Shown piece after piece: positions 2,701 to 19,501 of a DNA stretch of 64,000 nucleotides (positions within the stretch are counted from its first letter, which is position 1; each line of letters opens with the position of its first letter). The DNA comes from Candidatus Marinacidobacterales bacterium. GTDB lineage: Bacteria > Acidobacteriota > Vicinamibacteria > Marinacidobacterales > SMYC01. The notes under the pieces were generated by a model. The model made no database searches, had not been told where the DNA came from, and was given only the letters and a program-made list of their open reading frames with translations. The stretch is taken from NCBI GenBank assembly GCA_965224085.1, contig CBDCYI010000004.1, positions 1,472,001 to 1,536,000 on the forward strand, given 5' to 3'. The translations under genes were made by a program, and so were the position numbers.

Positions 2701-4827
2701 GTATCGGAGAAACTTCGTGGGAAGCACGAGCAAGAAAACAAGATTCTCACGGCGCGTCTCGCAACAGCCGAGAAGGAGTGTGACGAGGGACGTGTCGAAG
2801 CTTCAAAGCTCGAAGGGCAGATCGAAGAGCTTCACCGGAGGCTCGAACGCTCGAACGAAGTAGCCGAGGGAGGGCAGGAACGCCACGAGCAAGAGATCGT
2901 TAAATTCGAGAACACTCTTACCGAGGAACGGAAACAGGCGGACGCGACGCGTCAAGAGCTCTACGCGCAACTCACGGAACAACGCACGCAACACGCACGA
3001 GCCCTCGAAGAGCTCGAGAAGAAGCTCCTGGAGGAACGAGCCACGGCGACGTCGGAGCTCGAGAAAAAGCACCGTGCGCAGTCGGACGAAGTGGTTGGCG
3101 GGTGGAAGCGTTCCCTCGCCGAAGCGAGGGATGCGCACGAGAAAGAGCTGTCCACCCTCCGTTCGCGCCTCGGCGCTATGGAGCGCGCCGAGACAGCGGC
3201 ACGAGAAAGTCTGAAGCGCGCGTCCGAGGAGAGCACGGCCAAGCTCCAGGATCTCGAGAAGCGCTACGAGGAAAAGACTTCATCACTTGTCAAAAAGCAC
3301 GATGCCGAGCGCGCGGAGCTTCTGGCCACGGCTGCTTCCACCCTCGAATCGAAAGAAGAGGCGTTCGAGGAGCTCACCGAAAAGATCCAAAGAGCGCGGA
3401 AGAACCTGGAGGTCGAGAGACGGGACAGCCAAAAGACGCAGGAGAGATACGAGGACGAGCTTTCGAGTCTGCGGGAGACCCAGGCAAAGAATCTGGAGCA
3501 CGCTGAACAGGACAAAATGACTGCCCTCGCCGAGCTCTCTCGCAAGTCCAAAGAAGCCCGGACGAAGGCACTCGAGATCGAGCGTGCCCGTCTGCAGGAG
3601 ACGGCGGACGAAGTTCAGAAACAGCACGAGGAAGAGGTTGCGGCCCTCGAGGAGCGGCAACGTGCCGCGCTCAAAGACAGCGACGCGGCGCACGAAAGCG
3701 CGTTAGCGCAGAAGGCTCATGATCTCGACCAGATGAGCGCCAAGCACCGTGACGACCTTGCGGATGCACGGCGCGAGTACAAGAAAACGCTCGCCAAGCT
3801 TTCTCGGCAGTCCGAAGAAGCCCAGACGAAGGCGCTCGAACTCGAGCGCCGCCGCGCGCGTGACACGGCGGTCGAGGTTCAGAAAAAGAACGAGGAGGAG
3901 GTTGCGGCACTCAAGCAGCGGCGACGCGCCGGTTTGACGCACAAGGCCCGTGATCTCGATCAAATGAGCGCCAAGCACCGTGAAGAGCTCGAGGATGCGC
4001 GGCGCGAGTACAGCAACGGGCTCGCCGAGCGGGATCGCGCCGCTCAAGCGCTCAATAAGGCCATCGAACGAACGAAAGCCGACGATAGCGAGCGAGAGCT
4101 GTTGCGCGGGAAACACGCGGAGTCGCTGGCGGCCCTTCGAAAGGAGCTCGATGCATTGGGGCATACCCATCGGATCACACTCGCCCAACGAGCCGAGACC
4201 GCCACGAAGATGCTTCAGGAGGTCGAGGCGGAACGCGACGAAGCGCGTAGGGCGGCGAACGATATTCGCGCTCAGCTCGCGGAGAGCCAAAAAAAGTACC
4301 AGACCGAACGTCAGCAGCTCGAGCAGCGCGAGGGCGAATATTCCGCCGAGCTAAAGCGGCTCCGCGCCGCCATCGCACGCGAGCAGCAAGAATCTCGCTT
4401 CACGCGACAGGCGGCACGTATTAGTGACGCGATGCAGGATCGCCACGAGAGGGAAATCTCGGAGCTCGACGCGCGCCGCGCGCACGACGCGAAACGGGCA
4501 GAAAAAACTTTGATGAAGAAGCTCGAGCATCTCGAGAAAACGTTGAACCAGAAAGCCAAAAACGCCGCGGCCGACCGAGAGCGAGAGTGGACAGCCAGGC
4601 TCGAGAGGATGCGGCGTGAGTACGAGACGTCCAACGCGGCCTTGCGCAAAGAGATCGAGCACAAGGTCGGCGTTGCCGGGCATCGCTCGGAAGACGCCTC
4701 CGGGGAGCTCGCCGAGCTGAAGGCAAAGCTCGAGGAGCTGTCTCAGGAGCTTAGAAAAGCGCGCAAGGAAGTCGGCCTGCGCGACGAGCTCATTGCCGCA
4801 ACTGTAAGAAAGACTAATTCCCGCTAA
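2701..4827 (+). CDS. Long E/K/R/A-rich coiled-coil protein (C-terminal part, in frame with the OMF fragment)
   Basis: About 700 aa of heptad-like charged helix with an internal duplicated block ('DLDQMSAKHR..ARREY' twice). Confidence 0.65.
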   Translation, partial: VSEKLRGKHEQENKILTARLATAEKECDEGRVEASKLEGQIEELHRRLERSNEVAEGGQERHEQEIVKFENTLTEERKQADATRQELYAQLTEQRTQHARALEELEKKLLEERATATSELEKKHRAQSDEVVGGWKRSLAEARDAHEKELSTLRSRLGAMERAETAARESLKRASEESTAKLQDLEKRYEEKTSSLVKKHDAERAELLATAASTLESKEEAFEELTEKIQRARKNLEVERRDSQKTQERYEDELSSLRETQAKNLEHAEQDKMTALAELSRKSKEARTKALEIERARLQETADEVQKQHEEEVAALEERQRAALKDSDAAHESALAQKAHDLDQMSAKHRDDLADARREYKKTLAKLSRQSEEAQTKALELERRRARDTAVEVQKKNEEEVAALKQRRRAGLTHKARDLDQMSAKHREELEDARREYSNGLAERDRAAQALNKAIERTKADDSERELLRGKHAESLAALRKELDALGHTHRITLAQRAETATKMLQEVEAERDEARRAANDIRAQLAESQKKYQTERQQLEQREGEYSAELKRLRAAIAREQQESRFTRQAARISDAMQDRHEREISELDARRAHDAKRAEKTLMKKLEHLEKTLNQKAKNAAADREREWTARLERMRREYETSNAALRKEIEHKVGVAGHRSEDASGELAELKAKLEELSQELRKARKEVGLRDELIAATVRKTNSR

Positions 4828-7522: not shown

Positions 7523-7879
7523 ATGCAGCACCCAGTTGTGTGGTTCGAGGTTATGGGCGAGAACGGTGAACGTTCGCAGTCGTTCTACAGCAAGCTCTTC
7601 GGGTGGAAGATCGATGCCAGCAATCCGATGAAGTACGGGATGGTCGAAGCGGTGAACGGCCAAGGCATTCCCGGTGGCGTCGGGCAGCTCGGAGACCAGC
7701 CGTGGCCCAAAGTCACGTTCTACGTGTCGACGGAATCCGTGAGTGCCTCGCTCGAGCAAGCCGAAAAGCTCGGAGGCAAGGTTCTGGTGCCGCGCACCGC
7801 GATGCCGGACGGCCCCGTTCTCGGGATTTTTACGGACCCCGACGACAACGCCATCGGCCTCGTCGAGGAGAGCGCGTAG
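7523..7879 (+). CDS. VOC/glyoxalase family protein
   Basis: AGGAG RBS; 'HPVVWFEV', 'FYSKLFGW', 'FTDPDDNAIGL'. Confidence 0.9.
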   Translation: MQHPVVWFEVMGENGERSQSFYSKLFGWKIDASNPMKYGMVEAVNGQGIPGGVGQLGDQPWPKVTFYVSTESVSASLEQAEKLGGKVLVPRTAMPDGPVLGIFTDPDDNAIGLVEESA

Positions 7880-7928
7880 AGGTCGATCCTGCCCCGATCG
7901 GTGTATCTGCCGTACCATAGCCGGTGTT

Positions 7929-8634
7929 GTGAGACGCGCCGATCGACTCTTCCAGATCATCCAGCTGCTTCGCGGCCGGAGGCGGGCGGTCACCGCCTCC
8001 TGGCTTGCGGAGCGGCTTTCCGTTTCCGAGCGCACGGTATACCGTGACATCCGGGACCTCATAGCCACGGGAACGCCCATCCAGGGCGAAGCCGGGGTCG
8101 GCTACACGATACGCCGGGACTACGACCTTCCTCCGCTCATGTTCGACGCCGAAGAGCTCGAAGCTCTCGTTCTGGGAGCTCGGCTCGTGGGCGCCTTTGG
8201 CGATGAATCTCTCGTAGGCCCCGCGCGCTCCGCCATGTCGAAAGTCGAAACGGTGCTGCCGTCGCGCTTGAAAGTCGCAGGGCCCCGCCCCCGCCCTCTA
8301 CGCGCCGCGCACGTTCGGAGCCGAGATGCGCGCTCAGGCGCTCCACACCGTGCGCGGGGCCTTGACGGAAAAGCGCAAGCTGAAGCTTCGATACCAGAAG
8401 GAAGATGAAGAGGTTTCCGACCGTACGGTCCTTCCGTTGGGCGCGTTTTTCTGGGGGCGAAGCTGGACGCTTACCGCGTGGTGCGAGCTACGAAACGACT
8501 TTCGCAACTTTCGGCTCGATCGGGTCCTCGAGCTCCTGCCAATGGACGAAACATTCACCGACGAGCCCGGGCGAACCCTTCGTGACTACCTGCGCGGCAT
8601 GGGTCCTACCGCCGAGCAAATCCTTGACGACTGA
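7929..8634 (+). pseudogene. YafY-family HTH-WYL transcriptional regulator, frameshifted at about 8280
   Basis: 'RRADRLFQIIQLLR', 'SVSERTVYRDI', 'AWCELRNDFRNFRLDR'. Confidence 0.9.
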
Positions 8635-9016: not shown

Positions 9017-9526
9017 TTAGTCGTCCATCAAATCCTTGAGCGCTTCGGCGTGCGTCTCCAAGAAGAGACGATCTTTGGGACGATTTGCTTTGGCCTTGGA
9101 CGCAACGATGTGCGTTAGCCGCGCCACCGGAATCTCGACGTCTTCGACACGGAACACACGTTGCTCGTTCCACACTTGCTCGAAATCGAATCCCGCCATA
9201 ACGAACGTGAGATCGACTTCCAGACCGTGGTCGTCCGTTGCTTTGGTCAGTGCCTTTCGTTCGACGACACGATCAGCTAGCAAATGGTCGAGTGGCTTCC
9301 CCAGTGGCTCGGCGCCTGCCCAGAGCTGCAGTCCCTGAGCTTCGATCGTCCGCCAAACGGTTAGCAGGTTCTCCGGGTCCGGCGGAAGGAAAAGGTCGCG
9401 GTCCTTCGTCGTGAATAGGGTCGCTCCCGATATCGCATAGTAGTTCACGCCAGCGACGCCGATGAGTACATATCTTGCTGGCTCACGCGAAAGTGCGCTC
9501 ATGAGCCGGAGGAAAGAATCCGTCAC
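9017..9526 (-). CDS. Pol-beta-fold nucleotidyltransferase (AbiEii/DUF6036-like)
   Basis: 'YVLIGVAGV', 'TKDRDLF', 'IPVARLTHIVASKAKANRPKD'. Confidence 0.75.
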   Translation of the reverse strand: MTDSFLRLMSALSREPARYVLIGVAGVNYYAISGATLFTTKDRDLFLPPDPENLLTVWRTIEAQGLQLWAGAEPLGKPLDHLLADRVVERKALTKATDDHGLEVDLTFVMAGFDFEQVWNEQRVFRVEDVEIPVARLTHIVASKAKANRPKDRLFLETHAEALKDLMDD

Positions 9527-9529
9527 GTC

Positions 9530-9754
9530 TCAGCGCACGCGAGCGGCCTGTTGGTAGTGGCGATCCCAGTTGCCAATTGCTTTGTCGACCCAAGTCTTGT
9601 CCTCACCGCTCTGGTTTCGCGGGAGAGCCTCGACCCGGGCCACCGCCTTCAGGTACGCCTCGGCGAGGGGCACGTCCGGCTCCTCGGGTCGAGGCGCGCG
9701 CGCGTAGGCGTATGTTTCGGGCGTTCGATCGATCATGACCACGATCCTGTCCAT
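9530..9754 (-). CDS. Small hypothetical protein directly upstream of the nucleotidyltransferase
   Basis: 74-aa ORF ending 3 nt before the NTase start. Confidence 0.55.
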   Translation of the reverse strand: MDRIVVMIDRTPETYAYARAPRPEEPDVPLAEAYLKAVARVEALPRNQSGEDKTWVDKAIGNWDRHYQQAARVR

Positions 9755-10048
9755 ATAATATCAGGGCGACGTTCTGAGAAGCGCCCAACCCGTCGTCGGG
9801 ATGTATGGGGCGTAGCTCAACTGGCCCGCGGGGCGCGTGGTCTCGGTCCGGCTGCAAACAAAGCGTTGGGATGATGCCGAACAGCAGGCCGGCCAGCAGC
9901 GTCCGCTCGCCTCATTGGTTCGCGGCCGCGCGTTGATGCCGCCGCCAACAACGGCGCTCGTTTCTGTCATTCGAAAAATGAGTACGGCAGGAACTGAAAT
10001 CCCGCTTCCGAGGTTGATTCTCTCTTCTAAGACCGCTAGATTTGGCCG

Positions 10049-10118
10049 ATGGCTCTCCTCGCCGGAACGCGCCTAGGCCCCTACGAGATTCTTGGGCCGA
10101 TAGGTGCGGGGGGTATGG
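10049..10118 (+). pseudogene. N-terminus of a Hanks-type Ser/Thr kinase interrupted by IS110
   Basis: Translates MALLAGTRLGPYEILGPIGAGGM(G); kinase sequence stops at the IS end. Confidence 0.9.
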
Positions 10119-10133
10119 ACTCCCCACGCCGGA

Positions 10134-11429
10134 TCAAGAGAAAACCTTCTTCGTAGGAATCATCGTCGATTCGCTTTTTGTTGTGGACGACCGCGAGGGG
10201 TCGTAAAGAGTTCTTTGTCGAAGCATCGCCATGGCGATGGGTAGAATGCGGTCCATGACGCCTCTGAGAGCTCTGGCATGGCTGTGGCCCGCGTCGCGAA
10301 GCCGATCGTAGTGCTTTTTAAAGTGTGGGTCGCGAAGCACGGCAGTGCTGGCCCAATGATGGAGAGCGTTATTGAGGGGCAAAGAGCGAGCTCTCCTCAT
10401 CAGGATAGTTGGTCGCAACTGACCGCGCTTGCCGCTTTTTTTCGTGACGGGTGCGATGCCGCTGAGAGTCCTGAAGGCTTTGAGATTTCGTAGCCGAATG
10501 GGGTCGTGGGCATAGCAGAGCACGGAGGCGAGCACGTAAGCACCGACGCCGGGCAAAGAGGCAAGAATGGCAGCGTCGGAGCACTGCTTGTCGTTTAGTG
10601 CTTGCAAGCGCTTGAACCACTTCTCGAGATGCTGGTCGGAGGCACGACGATGTTGTCGAACGAGGAGCAACTGCTGAAGGAGCAGTTCGAGATGCTCAGA
10701 AGTAGCTTTGGTGGTTGCATGCGCGACTCGGAGTGGTTTTTGATTGAGGGTATCGAGGATCTGCTCGGGTTTTACGCGTCGGATGCGGTGTTTTTTAACG
10801 AGCGTCTCGATGGTGTGGCGGCTAAGAGAGTTGGGGCTGGATTCGAAGAAGAGTTTTAGGAGCTCGCAGAAAAACGCGTCGAGAGCCTTATTCTTTGGCG
10901 CGAGCGAGACGAGGTGAGGCCAACAACGAGTAAGGAGTTCTCGGATCTGCGAGCTGAGGGCAACGTGGTTTTTGACAAGTTGGTCGCGGGTGCTCAACAG
11001 CCCGCGCATAGCAAGGATCTCCGGAGGTGGAAGTTGCAAGCGCTGAAAGCGGTGACCGTCGGTTCTGAGCGAATCGGCGAGAACGAAGGCGTCGCGCCGA
11101 TCATCCTTGGCGCCGCTCATAGAATGCCGGTCGCGGAAACGGTCGACCTGCTTGGGATTGATGGAGAAAATGGCGATGGCGTTGTCAAGAAAGAGCTCGA
11201 CGACGGCTCCATGAGGCTTTTCGATCGCCACTGCGATGCGCTCGGTGTCTTGCGTGGTCAGTTCCAGAAGCCAGCCGATCGTTTCTGAAAGTCCTTCGCG
11301 GCTATGAGGAAAGCCGCGCTCCCCCATAAATTGTCCCCTGGTATCGACCACGCTGGCCAAGTGAAGCCATTGGCCCAGGTCGACACCGACGAAGAAGTCG
11401 TAGTCGAGCTGATTCCTGGAAGAACTCAT
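10134..11429 (-). CDS. IS110-family DEDD recombinase/transposase
   Basis: 'FVGVDLG', 'IAVAIE', 'KDDRRDA', 'SLPGVG', 'SGIAPVTKKSGK'. Confidence 0.95.
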   Translation of the reverse strand: MSSSRNQLDYDFFVGVDLGQWLHLASVVDTRGQFMGERGFPHSREGLSETIGWLLELTTQDTERIAVAIEKPHGAVVELFLDNAIAIFSINPKQVDRFRDRHSMSGAKDDRRDAFVLADSLRTDGHRFQRLQLPPPEILAMRGLLSTRDQLVKNHVALSSQIRELLTRCWPHLVSLAPKNKALDAFFCELLKLFFESSPNSLSRHTIETLVKKHRIRRVKPEQILDTLNQKPLRVAHATTKATSEHLELLLQQLLLVRQHRRASDQHLEKWFKRLQALNDKQCSDAAILASLPGVGAYVLASVLCYAHDPIRLRNLKAFRTLSGIAPVTKKSGKRGQLRPTILMRRARSLPLNNALHHWASTAVLRDPHFKKHYDRLRDAGHSHARALRGVMDRILPIAMAMLRQRTLYDPSRSSTTKSESTMIPTKKVFS

Positions 11430-11439
11430 TGCCGTCAGC

Positions 11440-11600
11440 GCATGTGATGTTTCATCGGCCCCTGTACCGGCGCTCGAAGCGCAACTCCCCATTGGATGTC
11501 CATCACAAGAAAATTGCCGGCACGCGTGTCCATACCGGGCGCTCGGAGCGCAGGGCGAAGTATGGCGTTGCCGGCAAGCTGCTGACGAAATCGAAAATAG
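11440..11600 (-). ncRNA. Putative IS110 bridge RNA (target-binding and donor-binding loops)
   Basis: Two stems (11514-22/11569-77 and 11443-49/11501-07), each enclosing an internal loop and a GCGCT(C/T)CGAGCGC hairpin; loop sequences match the target and donor junctions. Confidence 0.8.
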
Positions 11601-11632
11601 TTCAAGCTCATCGTGAGATTTGCTCTACCACT

Positions 11633-13492
11633 GAGCTCTCGCCTTCGACGAGCTCCATACAGATGGATGCCGAGATCGTGGATGGTGATGATATTCGGGT
11701 GGTTGAGCGCGGCAGCCGCGCGGGCTTCCTGAAGAAGCTGATCGCGTGCGGTGGGATCGCGCGCGAGCTTGGACGAAAGCACTTTGTAAGCGAGCGGTCG
11801 GCTCAAGAGCCTATCGAACGCGCGATAAACTTCGCCCATCCCGCCTTTGCCGATTAGCCCGTCGAGATTGTAACGGTTGCCGTTGAGTGCACCCTCGTCG
11901 CTGCTGCTCTTACCCTCGACGAGCATCCCGTTAAAGGAGCTTTCTCGCTGCTTTTCTTCTTCGATTTTCTCGAGTAGTCGGGCGTGCCGTTGGTCGACAT
12001 CCGCATAATTGTAGGAGACGGCCATGATGTTTCGCAGAAGCTCCTCGGCACGCTTCAGCTCTCCGATATCTTCGAGAGCTTCCGCGAGCGGATCCCAGAG
12101 CGCGAGATTCTCCGCATCGACGTTTCGTCCCGCGAGCACGGCTTCGAGGCGCTCGACGGCCATCGAGCCCCAGCCGCGACGGATGAATGCGCGGGCGAGG
12201 ATGACGACGGCTTCGTTGTAGCGCGCGTCTTCCTTTGGCACCTGTTGGAGATATTGAAGCATCTCGCGTTCAGCATTTGCTTCGGAAGCTGCCTGCGCGG
12301 CTTCGTAGAAACGTTCGACCAGCGCGAAAAGAACGGCGGCTTTGTCGAAGACGCCGAGCTTGAGATAGAGCTCGGCCGCCCGCTCGCGTTCGCCCGCGCG
12401 CTCGAAATAGAGAGCGGCCTTGTTGTCGAGACCCGCGCGTGCCGCCGCCTCCGCGGCCAGCGGCCACGCTTCCACCGCCTCCCAACATTCAGTGGCACGT
12501 TCGAACCGTCCGCTCCGATCGAAGAGCTCCGCCGCCGCCATGGTATCGCCGGAGCGCATGAGGGCGTCCCCCGCAGCCTCCTCGTTGCCGTCGTCGAGGT
12601 GATACTCGGCTTCGAGCTTCGCCGCACGCAGGTCGTCGCCCGCACGGGCGTACATTTTCGCGGCCTTTTTATTGTTCTTTACTTCTTGATAGAGCTCGGC
12701 CGCCCGGGCGAACCGCTCTAGTTGCTCGCACAGCTTAGCTGCTTGTTCGTAGCGTTCGGCCCGCACGAGCACCTCGACCGCTTCGTCTTTCTGCTCGGCC
12801 TTTTCGAAGAAGTGGGCCGCCCCACGGGCCGCCGTGTCGAGCTCGGTGCGTTGTTGTGGCGGGAGGTAGCCATCACGTGTGAGCTCCGCGACCCGAGCCG
12901 CATAGAGTGCTGCGGCCCGGGTGAAGTCTCCGACCTTCGCGTAGGAGGCGGCGGCCTCGCGGATACGCCCGCTTTTCTCGTAAATCTCGCCGGCCGTCAG
13001 GAAATCGCCATGTCTCTGATAGCACTCGGCGGCTTTGAGGAAGAGCCCTACTTTCGCAAAGAGCTCGCCCGCGAGCGCGAGCTCGCCGATCTCTTCGAGG
13101 AGCCCGGCGGCTTGCTGCGATTTACCTTCGTTTTCATAGAGGTCGGCGCCCCGACGCACTTCACCGGCGTCGACGAAAGCAGCGGCCGCATCGACGTTAT
13201 GTCCGGCTTCGAGGAAAGCAAGGGCAGCCTTCTGGTCCTCTCCCAGCTTCCGATAGAGGCTCGCTGCTTGATCCGGCTAGCGCGCCCGCATGTAGTGGGA
13301 CGCCGCAAGGTCTTCGCGGTTCAACTCGAGGGCCAGCTCGGCGCACTTCGCGTACTCGTCGGCTTTCTCGTAGTAGTCGATGGCGAAATAGAGCTCGCCG
13401 AGCTCTTCGTAGAGCTCACCCGCCCGCACGAAATCGCCGGATTTGACGGCTTTTTCAGCGAGTGTTCTCGGGTTCTTGCGAAGCAGCGGCAT
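11633..13492 (-). pseudogene. TPR/SNAP-like repeat protein with C-terminal Ser/Thr kinase, frameshifted and truncated
   Basis: 'AAELYE/AAECY' repeats; 'LIGKGGMGEVYRAFD', 'EARAAAALNHPNII', off-frame 'ICMELVEGES', then IS110 left end. Confidence 0.85.
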
Positions 13493-13622: not shown

Positions 13623-16600
13623 CTAAAACAAAGGCAGCTGCGAGCCGGGCTTACGTCCGTCGAGCCGAACCGTCTCGGGCTCGTGGCCCTCGCGAATCAC
13701 CCACCCCTCGACGTCTCGCCCCGGGAACGCGGCGGCCGCCGCACGAAGCTTTGGCTCGACGTCGCGTGCGGAGAGAGCGAGCACCGTCACACGATGGCGT
13801 CCCGCAATCAAGCATCCGATGCTGCCTCGGCTTACATGACGCCCGTGAACGATCGAGAACGGGACGCCGTAGTACATGCGCCCCGTCGCCGAGAGCGCCG
13901 CGACATCCTCTCGCTCGAGTAGCTCACGATACGACGCGACATCTTCGTCGGCTATTTCCACAACCGCCGCAGCTTCGGCAGTTTCCAAGGACCCCAGGCG
14001 GAGCTCACGGGCGCGTTCGGGACGTTCTTCGTGATAGGTCCGCTCGCTCGGCCGCAGCACCCGGAGGCGGTGCGCCCCCCAGGGTATTTCGCGCTCATCT
14101 GTGTCGAGGGCCTGGTGCAGCGCATCGCGAAAGCTCTCCGGGAGGAGACGCACGAAACTCTGATCGGTTTGCGCTTCGTCGCCGAGAACCGTCGATAGCA
14201 CCAAGTTGCGGCGCGCGCGCGTCAGGGCTACATATAAGAGTCGCTTCTCTTCTTCCTCGACTCGGTTCGGGAGATCTTCCGCGGGCTCCGTCGCGGCGAG
14301 CGCGCTCACTTCGACCCGTCCATCGGGAAGCTCGCGGATGCGCGGCAGCGACGTGTCTTGGCGTGTGCGCTGATGCATGTTGACGAGAAAGACGGAATCG
14401 AACTCGAGCCCTTTCGCCGCATGCACCGTCATGAGGTTCACCGCGTCGACGGCTTCGAGCACGGCGGGCGATTCCTCCTCCGTCGAGGCGCTCGCGAGGT
14501 AGTCTGCGAGGCGCGATAGCGTGAGATAGCCGCGGTTCTCCGCGCGCCGGACCATTCCCAACACTTTCTTGAGATTCTCCCAGCTCTGCTCGTCGTCGCG
14601 GAACCACGCGGCGTAGTCAGCGTCGTCGAGAATGTACGTGAGTAGATCCGCGGGCGGCATGCGGTCGACGAGCGCGACCCACCGCGGGACGCACGCGCTC
14701 GCGCGAAGGACGGCGTTGCGGTCGTCCTCGGTTAGCGGAAGCGATGTGTCGAGCGCCGCCCCTGAAAGCCACCGAGCGATCGAAGCCTTCCGGCCTGCGG
14801 CAACGCGCACCAACCCGTCGTCGGAGATCCCGATGAAGCGTGAGCGCGCGAGCTCGGCCGCGCGGAGCTCCGAAGCGGGCTCCGCCAGGTAGCGGACGAG
14901 GGCGGCGATATCGCGCACTTCGGCAGAATCGAAGAAGCCGAGCCCGCGATAGATGTAGGCTGGGACGCCTCTCGCGACGAGCGCCTCCTGGTAGATGCGG
15001 TACGAGGAGCGGCTTCGAAACAAAATGGCGATGTCCTTCGGCCGCCGGCCTTCCTCGGTGAGTACGCGCACGATTTCGCCGGCGACGGCGCTCGCCACAC
15101 CCGGAAGATCCGCCGCGACAGCAAGCGCTATGGGGCGCTTCGCGCTATCGAGCTTCGCGACAGGGAAGTGGTCGCCCTCGTGATATTGGAACGACCAATC
15201 GAGATCGCCGCGGACTTTGGGGACCTCGTCGAACAAATCGTTTAGAAAAGACAAGAGCTCTCCGTCGGCGCGGAAGCTCGTTCGAAGCGTCAGTCGTTGT
15301 CCGCCCCGGTGGCGGATCTTGAGCAGATGGCGCGAAGCTTTCTCCAGGACTTCCACGCGCGCGTCGCGCCATCCATAGATGGACTGTTTTCGGTCTCCCA
15401 CGATGAAGAGACTCGGCTCGCTTATCCGGCCGGTGCCCTCTCCTTCGGCTTGCTCCGACAAAATGGCTTCTTGCACGAGACCCTGACCTTCGCCCCAGCT
15501 CTCGATGAGCGCTTTCACGAGCCGCCACTGCACTTCGTTCGTATCTTGGAACTCGTCGATGAGAAGGTGGTGGTAGCGCGATTCGAGACGGAAGCGGCTC
15601 TGCGCGAACTCGCCGCGGTTCTCGAGAAGAGCGACCGCGTGGGTGAGCACGTCGCTGAAATCGATGCCGGCGCGCGCGCCTTTGAGCTCGGCGAAGCGCT
15701 TCGACGCAGCGTCATAGAGCTCGAAGAGCTCACGGATCGCGTAGAAGTCTTTCTCGCGCAACCAAGCTTTGTAAGTGCGCGCGACCAAAGGCGCGAGCCC
15801 TAGTACGCGGTCGCGGTGTGTTTCATAGTCTTCTACCCGCGCGAAACTGTTTTTAGCAACGAGCTTCGAGAGGCGGCGCCGCGGCTCTTTGTTCTGTGTC
15901 AAGAAATAGGCAGCGATCTCCTCGACATCTGCGCTTCCAATCGTGTCCGCATCGATGGCGCGGCGAAGGGCGAAGCCGAGCGCTTTCAACGCGAGTGCGT
16001 CCGGAGGCCCCGTGCCCAAGAACTGCTCCACACCCTCGGCGCCACGAAAAGCACTCCCGAGGCTCTTCGAAACGCGCTTCAAACTCGCGGTGAGGCTCAC
16101 CGATTTTGGGACGACGCGGCGCACGTAACGCGCGAGTATCTCCTCTTTCACAAGGCGGCTCGTCAGAAAATCGCGCATGCCTCGCCGGAGAGTGCCTTCG
16201 TCGAAGCGCGCGATGAGAAAGCGCAGGTCGACATTCGAGCCCCAGAGCACCTCCGCCATGACCTGGTCGATCGACTCTTCGAGCAAGCGTTGATTGTCCA
16301 CTTCGTCGATGAGCGCGATGTCAGGGTCGAGCCCTGCTTCGAGAGGAAACTCCCGCAAGAGCCCGAGACAAAACGCGTCGATGGTCGTGATGTGGATCTC
16401 GAAAAGACGGGTTCGAATGTCTTTCCAGAGATTGGGTCGTTTGCGGAGCTCTTCGATGATCCGGCCGCGCATCTCGCCCGCGGCCTTACGCGTGAAGGTG
16501 ATCGCGAGGACGTGTCTCGGGCTCGCGCCCCCTTCGATGAGATGGATGTAGCGCTCCACGAGCACGCGGGTCTTGCCCGTGCCGGCGGAAGCTTCGAGCG

Positions 16601-16670
16601 CGACGTTCAGGGTCGGATCCGAGGCGAGTTCGCGCGCGCGCCGATCGACAAAGCTGACGTCGCCCCTCAC
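13623..16670 (-). CDS. addA: AddA-type UvrD helicase (C-terminal nuclease degenerate)
   Basis: 'EASAGTGKT', 'ITFTRKAA', 'IDEFQDT', 'VGDRKQSIYGWR', 'TVHAAKGLEF', 'LLYVALTRAR'; GTGA overlap with addB. Confidence 0.9.
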   Translation of the reverse strand: MRGDVSFVDRRARELASDPTLNVALEASAGTGKTRVLVERYIHLIEGGASPRHVLAITFTRKAAGEMRGRIIEELRKRPNLWKDIRTRLFEIHITTIDAFCLGLLREFPLEAGLDPDIALIDEVDNQRLLEESIDQVMAEVLWGSNVDLRFLIARFDEGTLRRGMRDFLTSRLVKEEILARYVRRVVPKSVSLTASLKRVSKSLGSAFRGAEGVEQFLGTGPPDALALKALGFALRRAIDADTIGSADVEEIAAYFLTQNKEPRRRLSKLVAKNSFARVEDYETHRDRVLGLAPLVARTYKAWLREKDFYAIRELFELYDAASKRFAELKGARAGIDFSDVLTHAVALLENRGEFAQSRFRLESRYHHLLIDEFQDTNEVQWRLVKALIESWGEGQGLVQEAILSEQAEGEGTGRISEPSLFIVGDRKQSIYGWRDARVEVLEKASRHLLKIRHRGGQRLTLRTSFRADGELLSFLNDLFDEVPKVRGDLDWSFQYHEGDHFPVAKLDSAKRPIALAVAADLPGVASAVAGEIVRVLTEEGRRPKDIAILFRSRSSYRIYQEALVARGVPAYIYRGLGFFDSAEVRDIAALVRYLAEPASELRAAELARSRFIGISDDGLVRVAAGRKASIARWLSGAALDTSLPLTEDDRNAVLRASACVPRWVALVDRMPPADLLTYILDDADYAAWFRDDEQSWENLKKVLGMVRRAENRGYLTLSRLADYLASASTEEESPAVLEAVDAVNLMTVHAAKGLEFDSVFLVNMHQRTRQDTSLPRIRELPDGRVEVSALAATEPAEDLPNRVEEEEKRLLYVALTRARRNLVLSTVLGDEAQTDQSFVRLLPESFRDALHQALDTDEREIPWGAHRLRVLRPSERTYHEERPERARELRLGSLETAEAAAVVEIADEDVASYRELLEREDVAALSATGRMYYGVPFSIVHGRHVSRGSIGCLIAGRHRVTVLALSARDVEPKLRAAAAAFPGRDVEGWVIREGHEPETVRLDGRKPGSQLPLF

Positions 16671-19501
16671 GCGTCCTCCTGGATTTCTTTGCGACACACG
16701 CCGACGAAGCCACAGCTCGAGCAGAACGTGTCCCGGTGCGGCTTGGGCGCGAAACGGCCGTTCTGGATTGCGTCGAAGGTCTCGACGAGAAGCGCGCTCA
16801 CTTTCTGGTAATCCGCGCGCGCCGTTGATCGGCGGTCGCGGAAGCTGAGATAGGCGGATTCTTCGATGGGCGTGCCTAGATCTTGCGAAAGGCACATGGC
16901 GTAGAGCGGCACTTGGAGCGTCACCGATTTTTTCGGCGCACGGCCGCTCTTGTAGTCGTAAACATGCAGGCGCCCGGAAGTGTCCACGTCGGCGCGATCG
17001 ACCCGGCCTTTGATCCGTACGAACCACGGTTTTTCACCGCCGGGTCCTTCGGTCAAGCGGAGCGGGGTTTGAAACGGATGCTCGAGCAGCCGCTGCCGGA
17101 GCGGGCCGCGCGCCATCTCTCGGCGCAACAACCATTCGAGAGCCCCGGGTTCGCCGGGACCTCCGAACAAACGGCGGAGCTCCACGCGTCGATGTTCGGG
17201 CGGGATCTTCTTTGCCGCTATGTTTCGAAAAAGAGTGAGCGCGTCGTCATAGGTCTCGGGCTCGACGGGGCGGGGCTCGGCACGGCCTGCGTCCCATTCC
17301 TTGAAGCCTTCGTGCAAGAGATCGTGCAAGATGCGCCCACGCTCGAGCGGCGTCAGCATGGCTTCGACGTCTTCTTCTTCCGTGAGGCCGAGAAGATAGC
17401 GAGAGAAATACTTGAAGGGGCAACGGAGATAGAGCTCGAGCGCCGTCGGCGACACGGGGTCCGGGACCGCTCGCTCTGAGCCGACGATTCCGGACCGGTG
17501 CTTGGCCGGAAGCGGTGAGGACGGCTCGACGAGACCTCGGCGGAGTGCTTCGCTCTTCGTGACGACGAGCTCGCAAACGGCCTCGGCGTCATCCATAGGA
17601 GCTGGCTCGTGATCTTCGAGCCAGCTTTCGACTTCTTCGAGAAACGGCGACGCGACGGTGGGGATCTCGTCTTCGAGCTGGTGGCGAATGAGCACGAGAT
17701 GCTCTCGGCCCAAATCGAGAAGCTCTTGGAACCGACTTCGCTCCTGCGTCAAAAGCTTGCGATCCGACGGCCAGCCGAAATCGCGCAGGAGCCATTGTGG
17801 GAAGAAAATGTTGCGCTCGGCGCGCGCGGGCCACTCGCCTTCGTTGATACCGAGCAGAATTACGAGATCGAAAGCGCCGAACCCTGCGGAGCGGGCGTCG
17901 ACCACCGTTACGCCACCCGAGCCCGTCCGGAGAGCGAAGGTGTGTGCCTCCACCGCGCGGCGAAATTTTTCGCGGAAGGTGCGGAAGTCGATGGAAGGGT
18001 CGCCGACATGCAAAGCCGCCCCTTCCAAGCGTTCGAGGATCGCATCGACGGCGGCGCGGGCTCTTTGGTGACGCTCGTCCAGAATTGTGCGGGTGAAGGT
18101 TTTGAGAAAATCGCGTAGGCACCGGATTTTGTCGCCGAGCGAGCTCTCGGTCTCGAGCTCGGCGAGCGCTCTTCCCGTTTCCAGGATGGCGGCGAGTGGT
18201 GCCAGCACGCGCCGCGGCGCATCGCCCGTCTCCATTCCGGGGAGGCTCGGTTGCGCCGGTGGCCGGCTCTTCCGTCTCCAAAGCCTCTGCCAACGCTCGA
18301 GCCCGCCAGGCTCTTGATAGCGTAGCGTGAGCTCGTCAAGAGCCGCGACCTCGGATGGGCCGACGCCTTTGAAGACGAAAAACGGACTGCGTAAGAGCGC
18401 GAGGGCTTCGTTGCGATGCGCGTCGGTCGCGACCAGCTCGATAGCAAGATCGACCGCGGCCATGTATGGCTCGGTGGCGAGCGGAAAGCTGTCCTGGAGC
18501 TCGAACGGAATGCCGCCTTCGCCGAGAACTTTCTTCGCGAGGTAGAGATAGGGGAGCGGTCGCGGCACCACGATGGCGATGCGATCGAGAGGCGGCAGGT
18601 CGTCGTTGTCTTCAAGGTGTTTCATGAACCGCACAGCGTCGACGAGCGACTCCTCCCGGTCGCGCGCAACGTGCACCGCTGGATTCAAAAGCTTCGGAGG
18701 CGTCGCGCGCGCCTCTTCGTCCACGTGGAGGTCGGGTGCGGCCTCCGCGAGTGAGGCGGGAAGCGCAGAAACTTTGTCCACGGCCACTACGCTCAGTGTT
18801 TCGAGGCCCCGGGCTTTCGTCAGAAAATCGAGGTCGGCGGGAGCGAGTGTCTCCGAGCCGAGGACGAGGGCGCGCTCGTAGGGAAACGGCTCTCTCGAAA
18901 GAGCGCGGCGGACCGAAGGTGGATCGTGGAGATCGAGGCGTTCGAGCGCCGCGCGATAGGCTTGGAGCGACGTTTCGAGAAAGCGCGTCTGTGCGGCCAT
19001 CCTGGCGGCGCCCAGATCGTCAGGTGCCTCGAGCTCTTCGATCGCGCGCTTGGTGAAGTCTTCGAGCTCGGCACGATTTTGAAGAAGCTCGTCGTAGAAC
19101 TCCAGCACGCGCGGCGCAAGCCCAGCGCGCACTTTGAACGGCGGCGGGCTCCCGGACTTCGCGGCCTTTTGAAAGCCCTCTTCGAGAAGGGCCTCTCGAA
19201 GAAGTGGGTCCGCGAGGCGAACTCTGCCTTGGCTGCGCTCTGTGAGGTTTTCGAACAAAGAGCCCGGCGTCCTGATGACAGGAAGAAACACGACTTCGCA
19301 TTTCGTCGAGAGGTCGCGCTCGAGCTGGTTTCTATACAGATGCGCGGCGGCGGCCGTCGGGACGAGGACGACGGTACGACTCAGCGCGAGGGGGTCCCGC
19401 TCCGCTTGCTTTTTGAGCGTGCCGCTCGCAAAGGCGCTCACGCCGCGCCAACCGCGGCAGAGCACGAGCGCTGGTTTCGGCATCCGACCCATTCTATCCA
19501 C
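16667..19501 (-). CDS. addB: AddB-type PD-(D/E)XK nuclease with Fe-S cysteines
   Basis: 'LRCPFKYF', 'KGRVDRAD..VYDYKSG', 'LQVPLY', 'CSSCGFVGVCR'. Confidence 0.85.
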   Translation of the reverse strand: MDRMGRMPKPALVLCRGWRGVSAFASGTLKKQAERDPLALSRTVVLVPTAAAAHLYRNQLERDLSTKCEVVFLPVIRTPGSLFENLTERSQGRVRLADPLLREALLEEGFQKAAKSGSPPPFKVRAGLAPRVLEFYDELLQNRAELEDFTKRAIEELEAPDDLGAARMAAQTRFLETSLQAYRAALERLDLHDPPSVRRALSREPFPYERALVLGSETLAPADLDFLTKARGLETLSVVAVDKVSALPASLAEAAPDLHVDEEARATPPKLLNPAVHVARDREESLVDAVRFMKHLEDNDDLPPLDRIAIVVPRPLPYLYLAKKVLGEGGIPFELQDSFPLATEPYMAAVDLAIELVATDAHRNEALALLRSPFFVFKGVGPSEVAALDELTLRYQEPGGLERWQRLWRRKSRPPAQPSLPGMETGDAPRRVLAPLAAILETGRALAELETESSLGDKIRCLRDFLKTFTRTILDERHQRARAAVDAILERLEGAALHVGDPSIDFRTFREKFRRAVEAHTFALRTGSGGVTVVDARSAGFGAFDLVILLGINEGEWPARAERNIFFPQWLLRDFGWPSDRKLLTQERSRFQELLDLGREHLVLIRHQLEDEIPTVASPFLEEVESWLEDHEPAPMDDAEAVCELVVTKSEALRRGLVEPSSPLPAKHRSGIVGSERAVPDPVSPTALELYLRCPFKYFSRYLLGLTEEEDVEAMLTPLERGRILHDLLHEGFKEWDAGRAEPRPVEPETYDDALTLFRNIAAKKIPPEHRRVELRRLFGGPGEPGALEWLLRREMARGPLRQRLLEHPFQTPLRLTEGPGGEKPWFVRIKGRVDRADVDTSGRLHVYDYKSGRAPKKSVTLQVPLYAMCLSQDLGTPIEESAYLSFRDRRSTARADYQKVSALLVETFDAIQNGRFAPKPHRDTFCSSCGFVGVCRKEIQEDA

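Follow-up and report, generated by a model that had tools for sequence, protein, structure and literature searches.

Published accounts of natural IS110 elements, which work with bridge RNAs, place their insertions in intergenic repeats or within other mobile elements. The locus considered here raises the question of what places such an element at one exact position within the codons of a conserved protein motif. It lies in a stretch of 64,000 nucleotides from a Candidatus Marinacidobacterales bacterium (Acidobacteriota; assembly GCA_965224085.1, contig CBDCYI010000004.1, positions 1,472,001 to 1,536,000), referred to below, at its full length, as the window. At 10118|10119 the right end of an IS110-family element (minus strand, 10119–11633; the end itself, ...GTGGGGAGT, at 10119–10127) meets the N-terminal stub of a Ser/Thr kinase gene, here called kinase A (plus strand, 10049–10118), and the joint reads GGTATGG|ACTCCCCA. 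The stub encodes M-A-L-L-A-G-T-R-L-G-P-Y-E-I-L-G-P-I-G-A-G-G-M and the first G of the next codon. Comparison of sequences indicates that this is very probably a bridge-RNA-guided element, and that the clade to which it belongs is programmed for the glycine-rich-loop codons of Hanks-type Ser/Thr kinases.

The recombinase and the extent of the element

The element contains an intact gene for its recombinase (bridge recombinase, or IS110 transposase) on the minus strand at 10134–11432, encoding 432 amino acids. The protein matches the Pfam families DEDD_Tnp_IS110 (PF01548, 104.5 bits) and Transposase_20 (PF02371, 44.1 bits), and its score with NCBIfam NF033542, 'IS110 family RNA-guided transposase', is 161.8 bits (cut-off 140). 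Its phmmer alignment with the IS621 recombinase (8wt6, chain 8wt6_A) is weak overall (E = 4e-7), and the D, E, D-x-x-D and Ser-Gly (SG) positions of IS621 are all kept. The predicted protein appears to have the arrangement of the IS110 group, an N-terminal DEDD RuvC-like domain followed by a C-terminal Tnp domain with a catalytic serine. The open reading frame is 100% identical to that of a full-length copy elsewhere in the genome, and the protein is 100% identical to those of two other copies.

Alignment of the upstream regions of eight copies reveals that 1,085 bp are missing from the start of the window copy. It corresponds to positions 1086–2600 of a 2,600-bp full-length element, assigned here to subfamily 1, and is 99.93% identical to a full-length subfamily-1 copy over 1,515 bp (BLAST). 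A preliminary description of this DNA had placed the element boundary at 11632. Since the full copies are similar only as far as 11633|11634, and the initial 1,085 bp are missing, this position is not an end of the element and instead marks a deletion joint.

A two-loop RNA upstream of the recombinase gene

The region directly upstream of the recombinase gene (minus strand, 11436–11633) is predicted, from its fold and from a covariance model (R1), to encode a bridge RNA consisting of a two-loop core (11436–11590) and a 5' stem-loop (11591–11633). The minimum free energy fold of the 200 nucleotides upstream of the gene (−76 kcal/mol, z = −2.0) has an outer helix around two stem-loops with internal loops. 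The hairpin of the target-binding loop (GCGCUCCGAGCGC, minus strand, 11539–11551, helix 4) and that of the donor-binding loop (GCGCUUCGAGCGC, minus strand, 11469–11481, helix 6) are nearly identical in sequence. The alignment for R1 consists of four variants, namely the window copy, subfamily 2 and relatives from two other genomes. With four close sequences, RNAalifold returned the expected target loop, an alternative fold of the donor loop and only 1 compensatory pair; because of this alternative fold, an IS621-like structure was specified by hand in the model.

R1 matches directly upstream of the recombinase gene, on the same strand, in 54 of 64 distant loci (recombinases 31–43% identical), and at the expected place and strand in 42 of 48 close loci from metagenomes. 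In the alignment of the distant loci, standard pairs occupy 87.9% of cells compared with 29–38% when the partners are slid by 1–3 columns, and 30 of 33 pairs show compensatory change, with none of 500 shuffles attaining the observed values; these statistics are overstated, as the alignment was fitted to the R1 structure and related loci are not independent, yet the margin over the controls is large. The preliminary description had noticed a region of ~200 nucleotides with two internal loops upstream of the recombinase gene, and the fold, the R1 matches and the compensatory pairs all agree with it. A covariance scan, which it had also proposed, succeeded with the home-built model and returned nothing from Rfam (see below). 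A structured RNA with two internal-loop stem-loops in this position is, as far as prediction goes, what the IS110 group would lead one to expect. Among the distant loci the donor-loop strings (GUGGGGAGU, GUACAGG) are near-constant and the target-loop strings differ, which is the pattern reported for bridge RNAs in the available part of the original account (PMC11208160).

Guides, core and element ends

In the published scheme for IS621, so far as the accessible text sets it out, the left guides have the sequence of the top strand and the right guides complement it, with the core included (PMC11208160). Read in this way, the target loop holds a left guide of 11 nucleotides, AUACUUCGCCC (minus strand, 11553–11563), which equals the transposase-sense target strand including the CC core, and a right guide of 7 nucleotides, GGUAUGG (minus strand, 11530–11536), directly followed by the dinucleotide AC (minus strand, 11528–11529). 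The corresponding strings GGGCGAAGTA and GTCCATACCGG are found at 11553–11562 and 11528–11538. Jointly the two guides specify, on the kinase strand, GGT ATG GGC GAA GTA (T). The right guide is complementary at 7 of 7 positions to the flank CCATACC (10112–10118); within the kinase A stub, the right target half can be read at 10112–10116 and the GG (= CC) copy of the core at 10117–10118.

The left guide of the donor loop, UGGGGAGU (minus strand, 11483–11490), is identical to the last 8 bases of the right end (10119–10126). In plus-strand letters it reads ACTCCCCA, and it is conserved across the clade. The right donor guide, GGUACAGG (minus strand, 11460–11467), complements the core and first left-end bases (CC|TGTAC) of full-length copies and is followed by GG (11458–11459). 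All of the strings cited in the preliminary description are present, although its match to the right end in the second loop lies at 11483–11490 and not at 11484-91; that the donor loop matches an element end holds. The window does not contain the true left end, CC|TGTACGC..., which is the sequence complemented by the second guide of the donor loop and was predicted from the RNA before the end itself was found.

At the junctions of full-length copies a single target CC ends up on both sides of the element, and the reconstructed targets hold one CC. The core is thus CC, as had been proposed from the window copy alone (CC/GG). As in the IS110 group, the target guides appear to pair with both strands of the insertion site, core included, the donor guides match both element ends, and the two ends share a core, with no further target-site duplication and no terminal inverted repeats. 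The AC of the target loop complements the GT that ends the element, and 'GGAC' is kept in 34 of 34 distinct guide pairs, as would suit the handshake-like role suggested for it in the preliminary description. Its position is that of the target-loop handshake guide of IS621 in the part of the structural study available (Hiraizumi et al., PMC11208158). The computed junction of right end, CC and left end forms a promoter-like TTGATC-17 nt-TACGCT, as might be expected for element circles.

The empty site in kinase A

Contigs of four public runs were compared with the window. Those of X2 and X4, which belong to two different studies, follow 9950–10118 and then read GCGAAGTCTACAAGGCC... in place of the element, giving an uninterrupted kinase A allele with the protein sequence G-M-G-E-V-Y-K-A-N-D-T-R; after GGTATGG they continue as GCGAAGTCTAC.... 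The left target half (GCGAAGT.) was predicted from the RNA alone and later recovered in these contigs. The empty site GGTATGGGCGAAGTC (GGTATGG|GCGAAGTC) agrees with the guide-predicted GGTATGGGCGAAGTA at 14 of 15 bases, and the left target guide matches it at 10 of 11 positions, far more than expected by chance. At this site, the earlier suggestion that the target loop is aimed at the codons for G-M-G-E-V is borne out. The sister genome G003 also has an intact kinase A ortholog (MALLAGTRLGPYEILAPIGAGGMGEVYKARD..., Pkinase profile positions 1–255, 173 bits).

Support from contigs for the filled junction at 10118/10119, which the preliminary description had wished to see confirmed, is partial. 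One contig of X1 covers 9950–10141 with zero differences, but it has 23 bases on the element side and falls below the 31 bases required for bridging. Holes in the contigs at 11500–11561 (X4) and 11686–11800 (X1) carry no evidential weight.

Insertions in other kinase genes of the same genome

A BLAST search of the region against the whole assembly recovers seven further long copies and several fragments, and 12 copies and fragments of the element are present in the genome. Full-length elements measure 2,600 bp (subfamily 1) or 2,637 bp (subfamily 2, ~87–91% identical). In the other copies the similarity runs ~1.0–1.1 kb past window position 11633 to the common boundary CC|TGTACGC. Six of ten right ends (the window copy, C11a, C5a, C4b, C11b and C9a) abut antisense kinase N-termini ending at G-G-M, and five of nine left ends (C4b, C11b, C5a, C9a and an orphan fragment on C9) continue as G-(E/D/V)-V-Y-.... 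Some of the element copies next to such halves are 100% identical to each other and yet lie in different kinase genes. These kinase halves agree with the view, put forward in the preliminary description, that kinase paralogs are used as a multi-copy landing site. There are 46 Pkinase matches in the genome (E ≤ 1e-10) and 27 intact GxGxxGxV[YWF] loops (regular expression), 22 of which are xMG; at least 8 kinase loci contain an element, a fragment or a scar. Four subfamily-2 copies are 99.8–100% identical and each sits in a different gene, which indicates recent independent insertions.

Several hit kinases are decayed or deleted, namely those at the window copy, C9a, the C9 orphan and a 6-nucleotide scar. 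Of the two consequences anticipated earlier for the kinase genes, knock-out is seen, in that the genes are split and some have decayed; shuffling is not, the copies being accompanied only by deletions, truncations and the scar.

The scar itself is located at ~655,215–655,260 of contig C11 of this genome (G000). A kinase N-terminus ...Y-E-I-L-E-P-I-G-K is followed by CGTACA and then by GGGTGAGGTCTAT (G-E-V-Y), so that the last 6 nucleotides of a left end stand in place of the glycine-loop GGN GGN AT and the kinase is out of frame. This looks like imprecise loss of an element via GGCAAG microhomology.

Two other copies show further rearrangements. On contig C5 of the same genome (333088–334696) a subfamily-2 derivative without element positions 1332–2359 keeps both ends, the accessory genes ORF-A and ORF-B (described below) and the bridge RNA. 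As its recombinase gene is gone, it is a candidate non-autonomous element mobilised in trans. Its site is not a kinase and reads ...T-A-T-G-G-M|G-D-K-T-T.... Copy C11a lacks its first 259 bp and adjoins an inverted 34-nucleotide right-end fragment of another copy (G000 C11:766919–766952). The junction of this fragment, at ...CCG TAC GGA ATG G, falls within an open reading frame (...RCPERNRLEYHHEDPYGMG) that has what we take to be an HNH-nuclease-like motif, an arrangement read here as a nested or rearranged insertion at a non-kinase G-M-G site.

Relatives in other genomes and metagenomes

A scan of the genomes of 185,579 species found only two close relatives. The 2,014-bp element of G009, whose recombinase is 62% identical, has ORF-A as its sole accessory gene and interrupts MALAPDTQLGAYKIVEAIGAGGM|GEVYRARDTKLDRTVALKILPP..., where the split kinase reads on as |GEVYRARD.... 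In G002 a 3'-truncated element adjoins GEVYRARDGKLGRDVAIKVLP..., and its left flank is a kinase. Of 60 loci, two have the kinase motif HRDxKxxN beside the element, and these (L001 and L027) are the close relatives; in the 58 more distant loci (the distant set being ≤43% identical) this motif search found no kinase beside the element. Kinase targeting therefore seems specific to the clade.

A metagenome scan gave 80 loci, of which 48 have recombinases 61–90% identical; all 48 were searched with R1. The 42 loci with a match have the full bridge RNA, and the other 6 are 3' fragments without upstream sequence. Right junctions with at least 16 nucleotides of flank were located in 31 of the 42, and all 31 flanks (reverse complement) end in ...G-x-G-G-M. 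Left ends were located in 12 of the 42, and all 12 flanks start with G-x-V-[YWF]. In the remaining loci the contig ends before the junction or the end pattern failed to match. The 29 distinct 40-nucleotide right flanks indicate that the insertions are in different kinase genes, and seven of seven left flanks tested begin at Pkinase profile position 13 (102–163 bits, Pfam). The preliminary description had suggested asking whether close homologs insert at GGMGEV codons, and every located metagenome junction is kinase-like.

The most divergent member, on metagenome contig L144 (bridge RNA at 1314–1470), has a recombinase 61% identical to that in the window, and its left guide (CAGACGGUACCC) is of another sequence. 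Even so, the right end adjoins ...L-G-S-G-G-M. The left target half of this element may differ from G-E-V.

Guide variation follows the codons of the motif

Guide statistics were drawn from 47 bridge RNAs with 34 distinct guide pairs. The consensus is C-R-N-A-C-N-U-C-N-C-C-C for the left guide and G-G-N-A-U-G-G-A-C for the right. The four N positions, with entropies of 1.3–1.9 bits, fall on the third bases of the codons for Gly, Gly, Glu/Asp and Val. Within the left-guide segment high entropy (>1.3 bits) occurs solely at positions 3, 6 and 9; position 2, the R of the consensus, corresponds to the base that opens the codon following Val and has 0.79 bits. Elsewhere within the guides the entropy does not exceed 0.19 bits, and two more variable columns (1.0–1.5) lie just outside the guides, beside the hairpins.

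The variable bases also follow the flanks of their own element. At 26 of 42 junctions the right-guide N agrees with the flank beside it (permutation mean 11.3; none of 20,000 shuffles gave 26), and the three N positions of the left guide agree with theirs in 34 of 72 cases, where permutation gives 23.1 on average (p = 0.0006). These p-values are optimistic because the loci are related and some share an identical element. Guides that covary with their flanks are what the preliminary description would require.

A different explanation of these sites is that the protein determines the preference, or that selection acting on completed insertions favours those in, for instance, dispensable paralogs, and that the likeness of the loops to the target is incidental or a captured fragment. 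We regard this as extremely improbable. Across at least 29 different kinase genes the insertion point is precisely the same phosphodiester, and the structure that contains the loops has homologs at 54 distant IS110 loci, where variation is seen in the target loop and not in the donor loop. In addition, the variable guide bases follow their own flank well above the permutation mean, and the RNA foretold the empty site at 14 of 15 bases. What speaks for this explanation is that guide and flank match imperfectly, and that contigs of the RNA run X17 give zero cover of the bridge RNA, which shows neither expression nor its absence.

Both points also weigh against the reading of the clade as RNA-guided to kinase codons, and they do not stand alone. 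The left guide matches on average 8.5 of 11 positions. Contigs of X17 occur only at 10219–10958 (95–99% identity, part of the recombinase gene), together with a short piece at 11678–11710. An Rfam scan of 9500–12500 at E ≤ 1 found zero families, leaving the RNA without an independent curated model, and the inflation of the pair counts noted above belongs here as well. The left donor guide stops short of the CC core, unlike in the description of IS621, and of the GG in the donor loop the first G can pair with the C before the target core while the second is unpaired. Finally, non-kinase sequence that is only partly guide-like borders four of the ten right ends and four of the nine left ends in this genome. 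These sites hold ATGGGC and several further guide-matching bases, and off-target insertion at half-matches, as reported in the literature, could account for them.

Accessory genes

In transposase sense the full-length element consists of the left end, ORF-A, ORF-B, the bridge-RNA region, the recombinase gene and the right end. ORF-A encodes a Cys-rich protein of ~126–136 amino acids with invariant C17, C24, C27, C34 and C38 and a C-terminal CxxCGR.G, and ORF-B a protein of 138 amino acids. By tblastn, all 46 loci with ORF-A belong to the kinase-targeting clade, and no ORF-A was found among the distant IS110 loci. ORF-B is present in 45 loci and absent from the ~2.0-kb elements; relatives of 2,014–2,068 bp have ORF-A alone. 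Examples of accessory genes are found at 3359–3766 and 2956–3372 of L078 (both minus strand), at 2989–3462 of L061 (minus strand) and at 2666–3046 of L001 (plus strand). Neither ORF matches a Pfam or NCBIfam family at a meaningful score, and their neighbours in the Atlas are all annotated 'hypothetical protein'. No structural match was found for an accessory protein, the AlphaFold model having a mean pLDDT of 73 and the best Foldseek hit in the PDB an E-value of 6.8. At 2,600 or 2,637 bp and with two extra genes, these elements are not classical insertion sequences, which are shorter than ~2.5 kb and free of passenger genes.

The deletion joint and the history of the locus

On the far side of the joint at 11633|11634, element position 1086 is followed by the middle of a second kinase gene. 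This kinase B pseudogene (minus strand, 11634–13159) comprises a TPR-rich N-terminal part and the start of a kinase domain (Pfam TPR; Pkinase positions 1–65). It is cut after ...MELVEGES, where the sequence departs after ...GAGAGCT at 11634; in G003 an intact ortholog (88% identity) runs on as ...GESYASILK.... The glycine-loop codons of kinase B, at 11828–11842, are unoccupied. A 17-nucleotide frameshifting deletion between CATC direct repeats is present at 11665|11666 (CAGGATGGGCGCGCTTT in the G003 ortholog), 32 nucleotides from the element joint, and this second lesion indicates that kinase B is decaying.

The simplest account of these features is insertion into kinase A followed by one deletion. 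The single deletion would have taken the first 1,085 bp of the element, with its left end and two accessory genes (the window copy begins 7 nucleotides ahead of the ORF-B stop codon), the rest of kinase A, the intervening DNA (~18 kb in G003) and the C-terminal half of kinase B. In G003 kinases A and B are both intact, convergent and ~18 kb apart, an arrangement from which a simple deletion would be expected to give the observed joint. No CC core or guide similarity is found at 11633|11634, and illegitimate recombination is for this reason a more likely cause than the recombinase.

Other origins for this end of the element were considered and set aside. A joint made by the recombinase was rejected on the absence of a core and of guide similarity just described. 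A short pseudo-left end at CATC|TGTATGG (~11660) proved to be kinase B sequence by comparison with the G003 ortholog. An inversion or translocation was rejected since the missing halves of kinases A and B occur nowhere else in the assembly at ortholog-level identity, the best paralogs reaching 57% (protein) and 74% (DNA).

The joint might also be an assembly chimera at a repeated element and not a true deletion. The element is multi-copy (12 copies and fragments), contigs of other runs continue without the deletion to either side of the joint (their loose ends, at 11630/11633 and at 11634, come from other populations), and none of the records among the contigs listed from public runs bridges 11633|11634, which weighs against the deletion account. 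On the other hand, the two flanks are convergent neighbours ~18 kb apart in G003, which a random mis-join would not yield; the missing kinase halves are absent from the rest of the assembly; and the contig is ~2 Mb long. A chimera seems improbable on this evidence, and the deletion is preferred.

A separate question is whether the deleted copy is a dead relic, immobile and unexpressed, at a locus without function. We give this somewhat less than an even chance. The left end and both accessory genes are gone, and with the left end missing the copy can form neither a circle junction nor a junction promoter. A scan of 9900–11900 found zero sigma-70-like promoter sites, and its one terminator-like site overlaps the target loop and is probably merely the bridge RNA's own stem. 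Against decay, the bridge RNA is complete, and the recombinase reading frame is undamaged and shares 100% identity with its counterpart in the full-length copy; this identity, together with 99.93% DNA identity over 1,515 bp, suggests that the truncation is recent. Kinase B, upstream on the same strand, could give read-through transcription, and published work, in the portions available, describes recombination with a half-matched donor as well as recombinase-only elements that use RNA in trans. With its recombinase gene, bridge RNA and right end, the window copy can probably act only in trans, and could supply recombinase and RNA, possibly by read-through from kinase B.

Farther from the element, the overlapping open reading frames at 7743–8408 and 8326–8634 (plus strand, within 7743–8634) look like one gene split by a frameshift, ...RLFQIIQLLRGRRRAVTASWLAERLSVSERTVYRDIRDL..., presumably a helix-turn-helix or WYL-type regulator. 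On the minus strand at 13623–17027 is a 1,134-amino-acid open reading frame, ...EASAGTGKTRVLVERY..., which we take to contain the Walker A region of a UvrD/AddA-like helicase.

Proposed mechanism and significance

By analogy with IS621, the RNA upstream of the recombinase gene would be transcribed, fold into two stem-loops with one internal loop each, and be bound by a recombinase tetramer, with strand exchange at CC via a circular intermediate. In the target loop, AUACUUCGCCC and GGUAUGG would pair with both strands of GGN ATG GGN GAN GTN T, a step suggested by IS621 homology and backed by covariation. In the donor loop, UGGGGAGU and GGUACAGG would recognise the joined element ends (...GGGGAGT-CC-TGTAC...). 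Recombination would fall at the CC core formed, on the kinase strand, by the last base of the Met codon and the first base of the next Gly codon; from this it would follow that the gene is always split by an element in antisense orientation, placed between Pkinase profile positions 12 and 13. As the amino acids G-M-G-E/D-V determine the site, dozens of paralogs would offer near-matches, and the guides would diverge among lineages mainly at wobble positions.

The precision of insertion invites the further idea that the elements have been domesticated as reversible switches, seamless insertion and precise excision toggling individual kinase genes. Insertion duplicates nothing of the target apart from the shared core, so that precise excision would give back an open reading frame; filled and empty kinase A alleles coexist in public runs; and excision of IS110-family elements to circles has been described (PMC13626964, available text). 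The decay or deletion of several hit kinases is, however, what parasitism predicts and not what regulation predicts, and the empty alleles may simply belong to strains that were never hit. Domestication as switches therefore seems to us highly unlikely.

A broader possibility combines a clade specialised on a protein motif, a guide that back-translates G-M-G-E/D-V-(Y/W), wobble drift, codon selection and perhaps reversible off-switches. Taken whole it is speculative and rather unlikely. If true, wobble drift would let lineages hop among kinase paralogs with different codon choices, the synonymous codons of the host kinase catalytic loop would be under selection, and seamless insertion and excision together with the two accessory proteins might make reversible, paralog-selective off-switches for bacterial kinomes.

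Under the preferred reading of a clade guided to kinase codons, the guide would be tuned to the codons of a catalytic motif common to a whole gene family, and one guide would address dozens of paralogs. This would be a natural precedent for bridge editing across a gene family, and the clade a source of new bridge RNAs with a CC core and a target of ~16 bp. Guide variation at wobble positions would serve as an evolutionary read-out of RNA-guided targeting that requires no experiment. The pattern also suggests a force not previously considered on bacterial Ser/Thr-kinase repertoires and on their synonymous codon usage, and the two accessory genes add to the IS110 tool-kit.

Comparison with known systems

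Much of this machinery has precedent. Bridge RNAs, guide logic and handshake guides are already published (PMC11208160, PMC11208158), as are REP targeting, cargo-bearing IS110 elements, half-match events and use of RNA in trans, so far as the portions of those reports at hand extend. Supplementary tables aside, no literature report was found of IS110 elements targeting kinase codons, in keeping with the preliminary description, which had seen no such strategy described, nor of wobble-concentrated guide variation or of the ORF-A and ORF-B accessory genes; such a motif might stand, uncommented, among the target motifs per guide bin in Supplementary Data 2 of PMC11208160.

The closest likeness is to IS621 and the IS110 group as set out in PMC11208160 (Durrant et al. 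2024) and PMC11208158 (Hiraizumi et al. 2024). Shared features are a recombinase with DEDD RuvC-like and Ser 'Tnp' domains, an upstream RNA of ~150–200 nucleotides in which the donor-binding loop comes 3' of the target-binding loop, left guides equal to the top strand and right guides complementary to it, a core dinucleotide common to target and donor that borders the inserted element, a putative handshake dinucleotide after the right target guide, and the lack of terminal inverted repeats. The present element differs in its core (CC compared with CT in IS621), in its longer target guides (11 + 7 nucleotides, ~16 bp covered) and in a left donor guide that excludes the core. Its bridge RNA lies 0.6–1.1 kb inside the element behind one or two extra genes, whereas IS621 has a short left end; its natural target is a protein-coding motif of a paralog family, and the recombinases are only distantly related (phmmer E = 4e-7).

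The REP-targeting elements ISPpu9 and ISPpu10, as far as the accessible descriptions go, similarly use a multi-copy genomic sequence as a landing site and spread within a genome. Their landing sites are intergenic repeats, where insertion is largely neutral. In contrast, each insertion of the present element into its kinase target destroys a gene, and the site varies at synonymous positions; here the landing repeat exists because the protein motif is conserved.

Cargo-bearing 'expanded' IS110 elements (Hu et al. 2026, 10.64898/2026.08.14.744561) are likewise longer than ~1.5 kb, with non-transposase open reading frames and truncated or partial derivatives, and the word 'kinase' is absent from the available text of that preprint. 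The cargo of the present clade differs from what that text describes in being a fixed set of clade-specific small genes, ORF-A in all and ORF-B in most, and not plasmid or resistance DNA.

Homing endonuclease genes, inteins and mobile introns also target conserved coding motifs, and splice out, as RNA or as protein, so that the host gene stays functional. Like them, the element described here would exploit an essential, conserved protein motif as a dependable and widespread target. Unlike them, it has no means of splicing, inactivates the gene that it enters and appears to find its target by means of a guide RNA.

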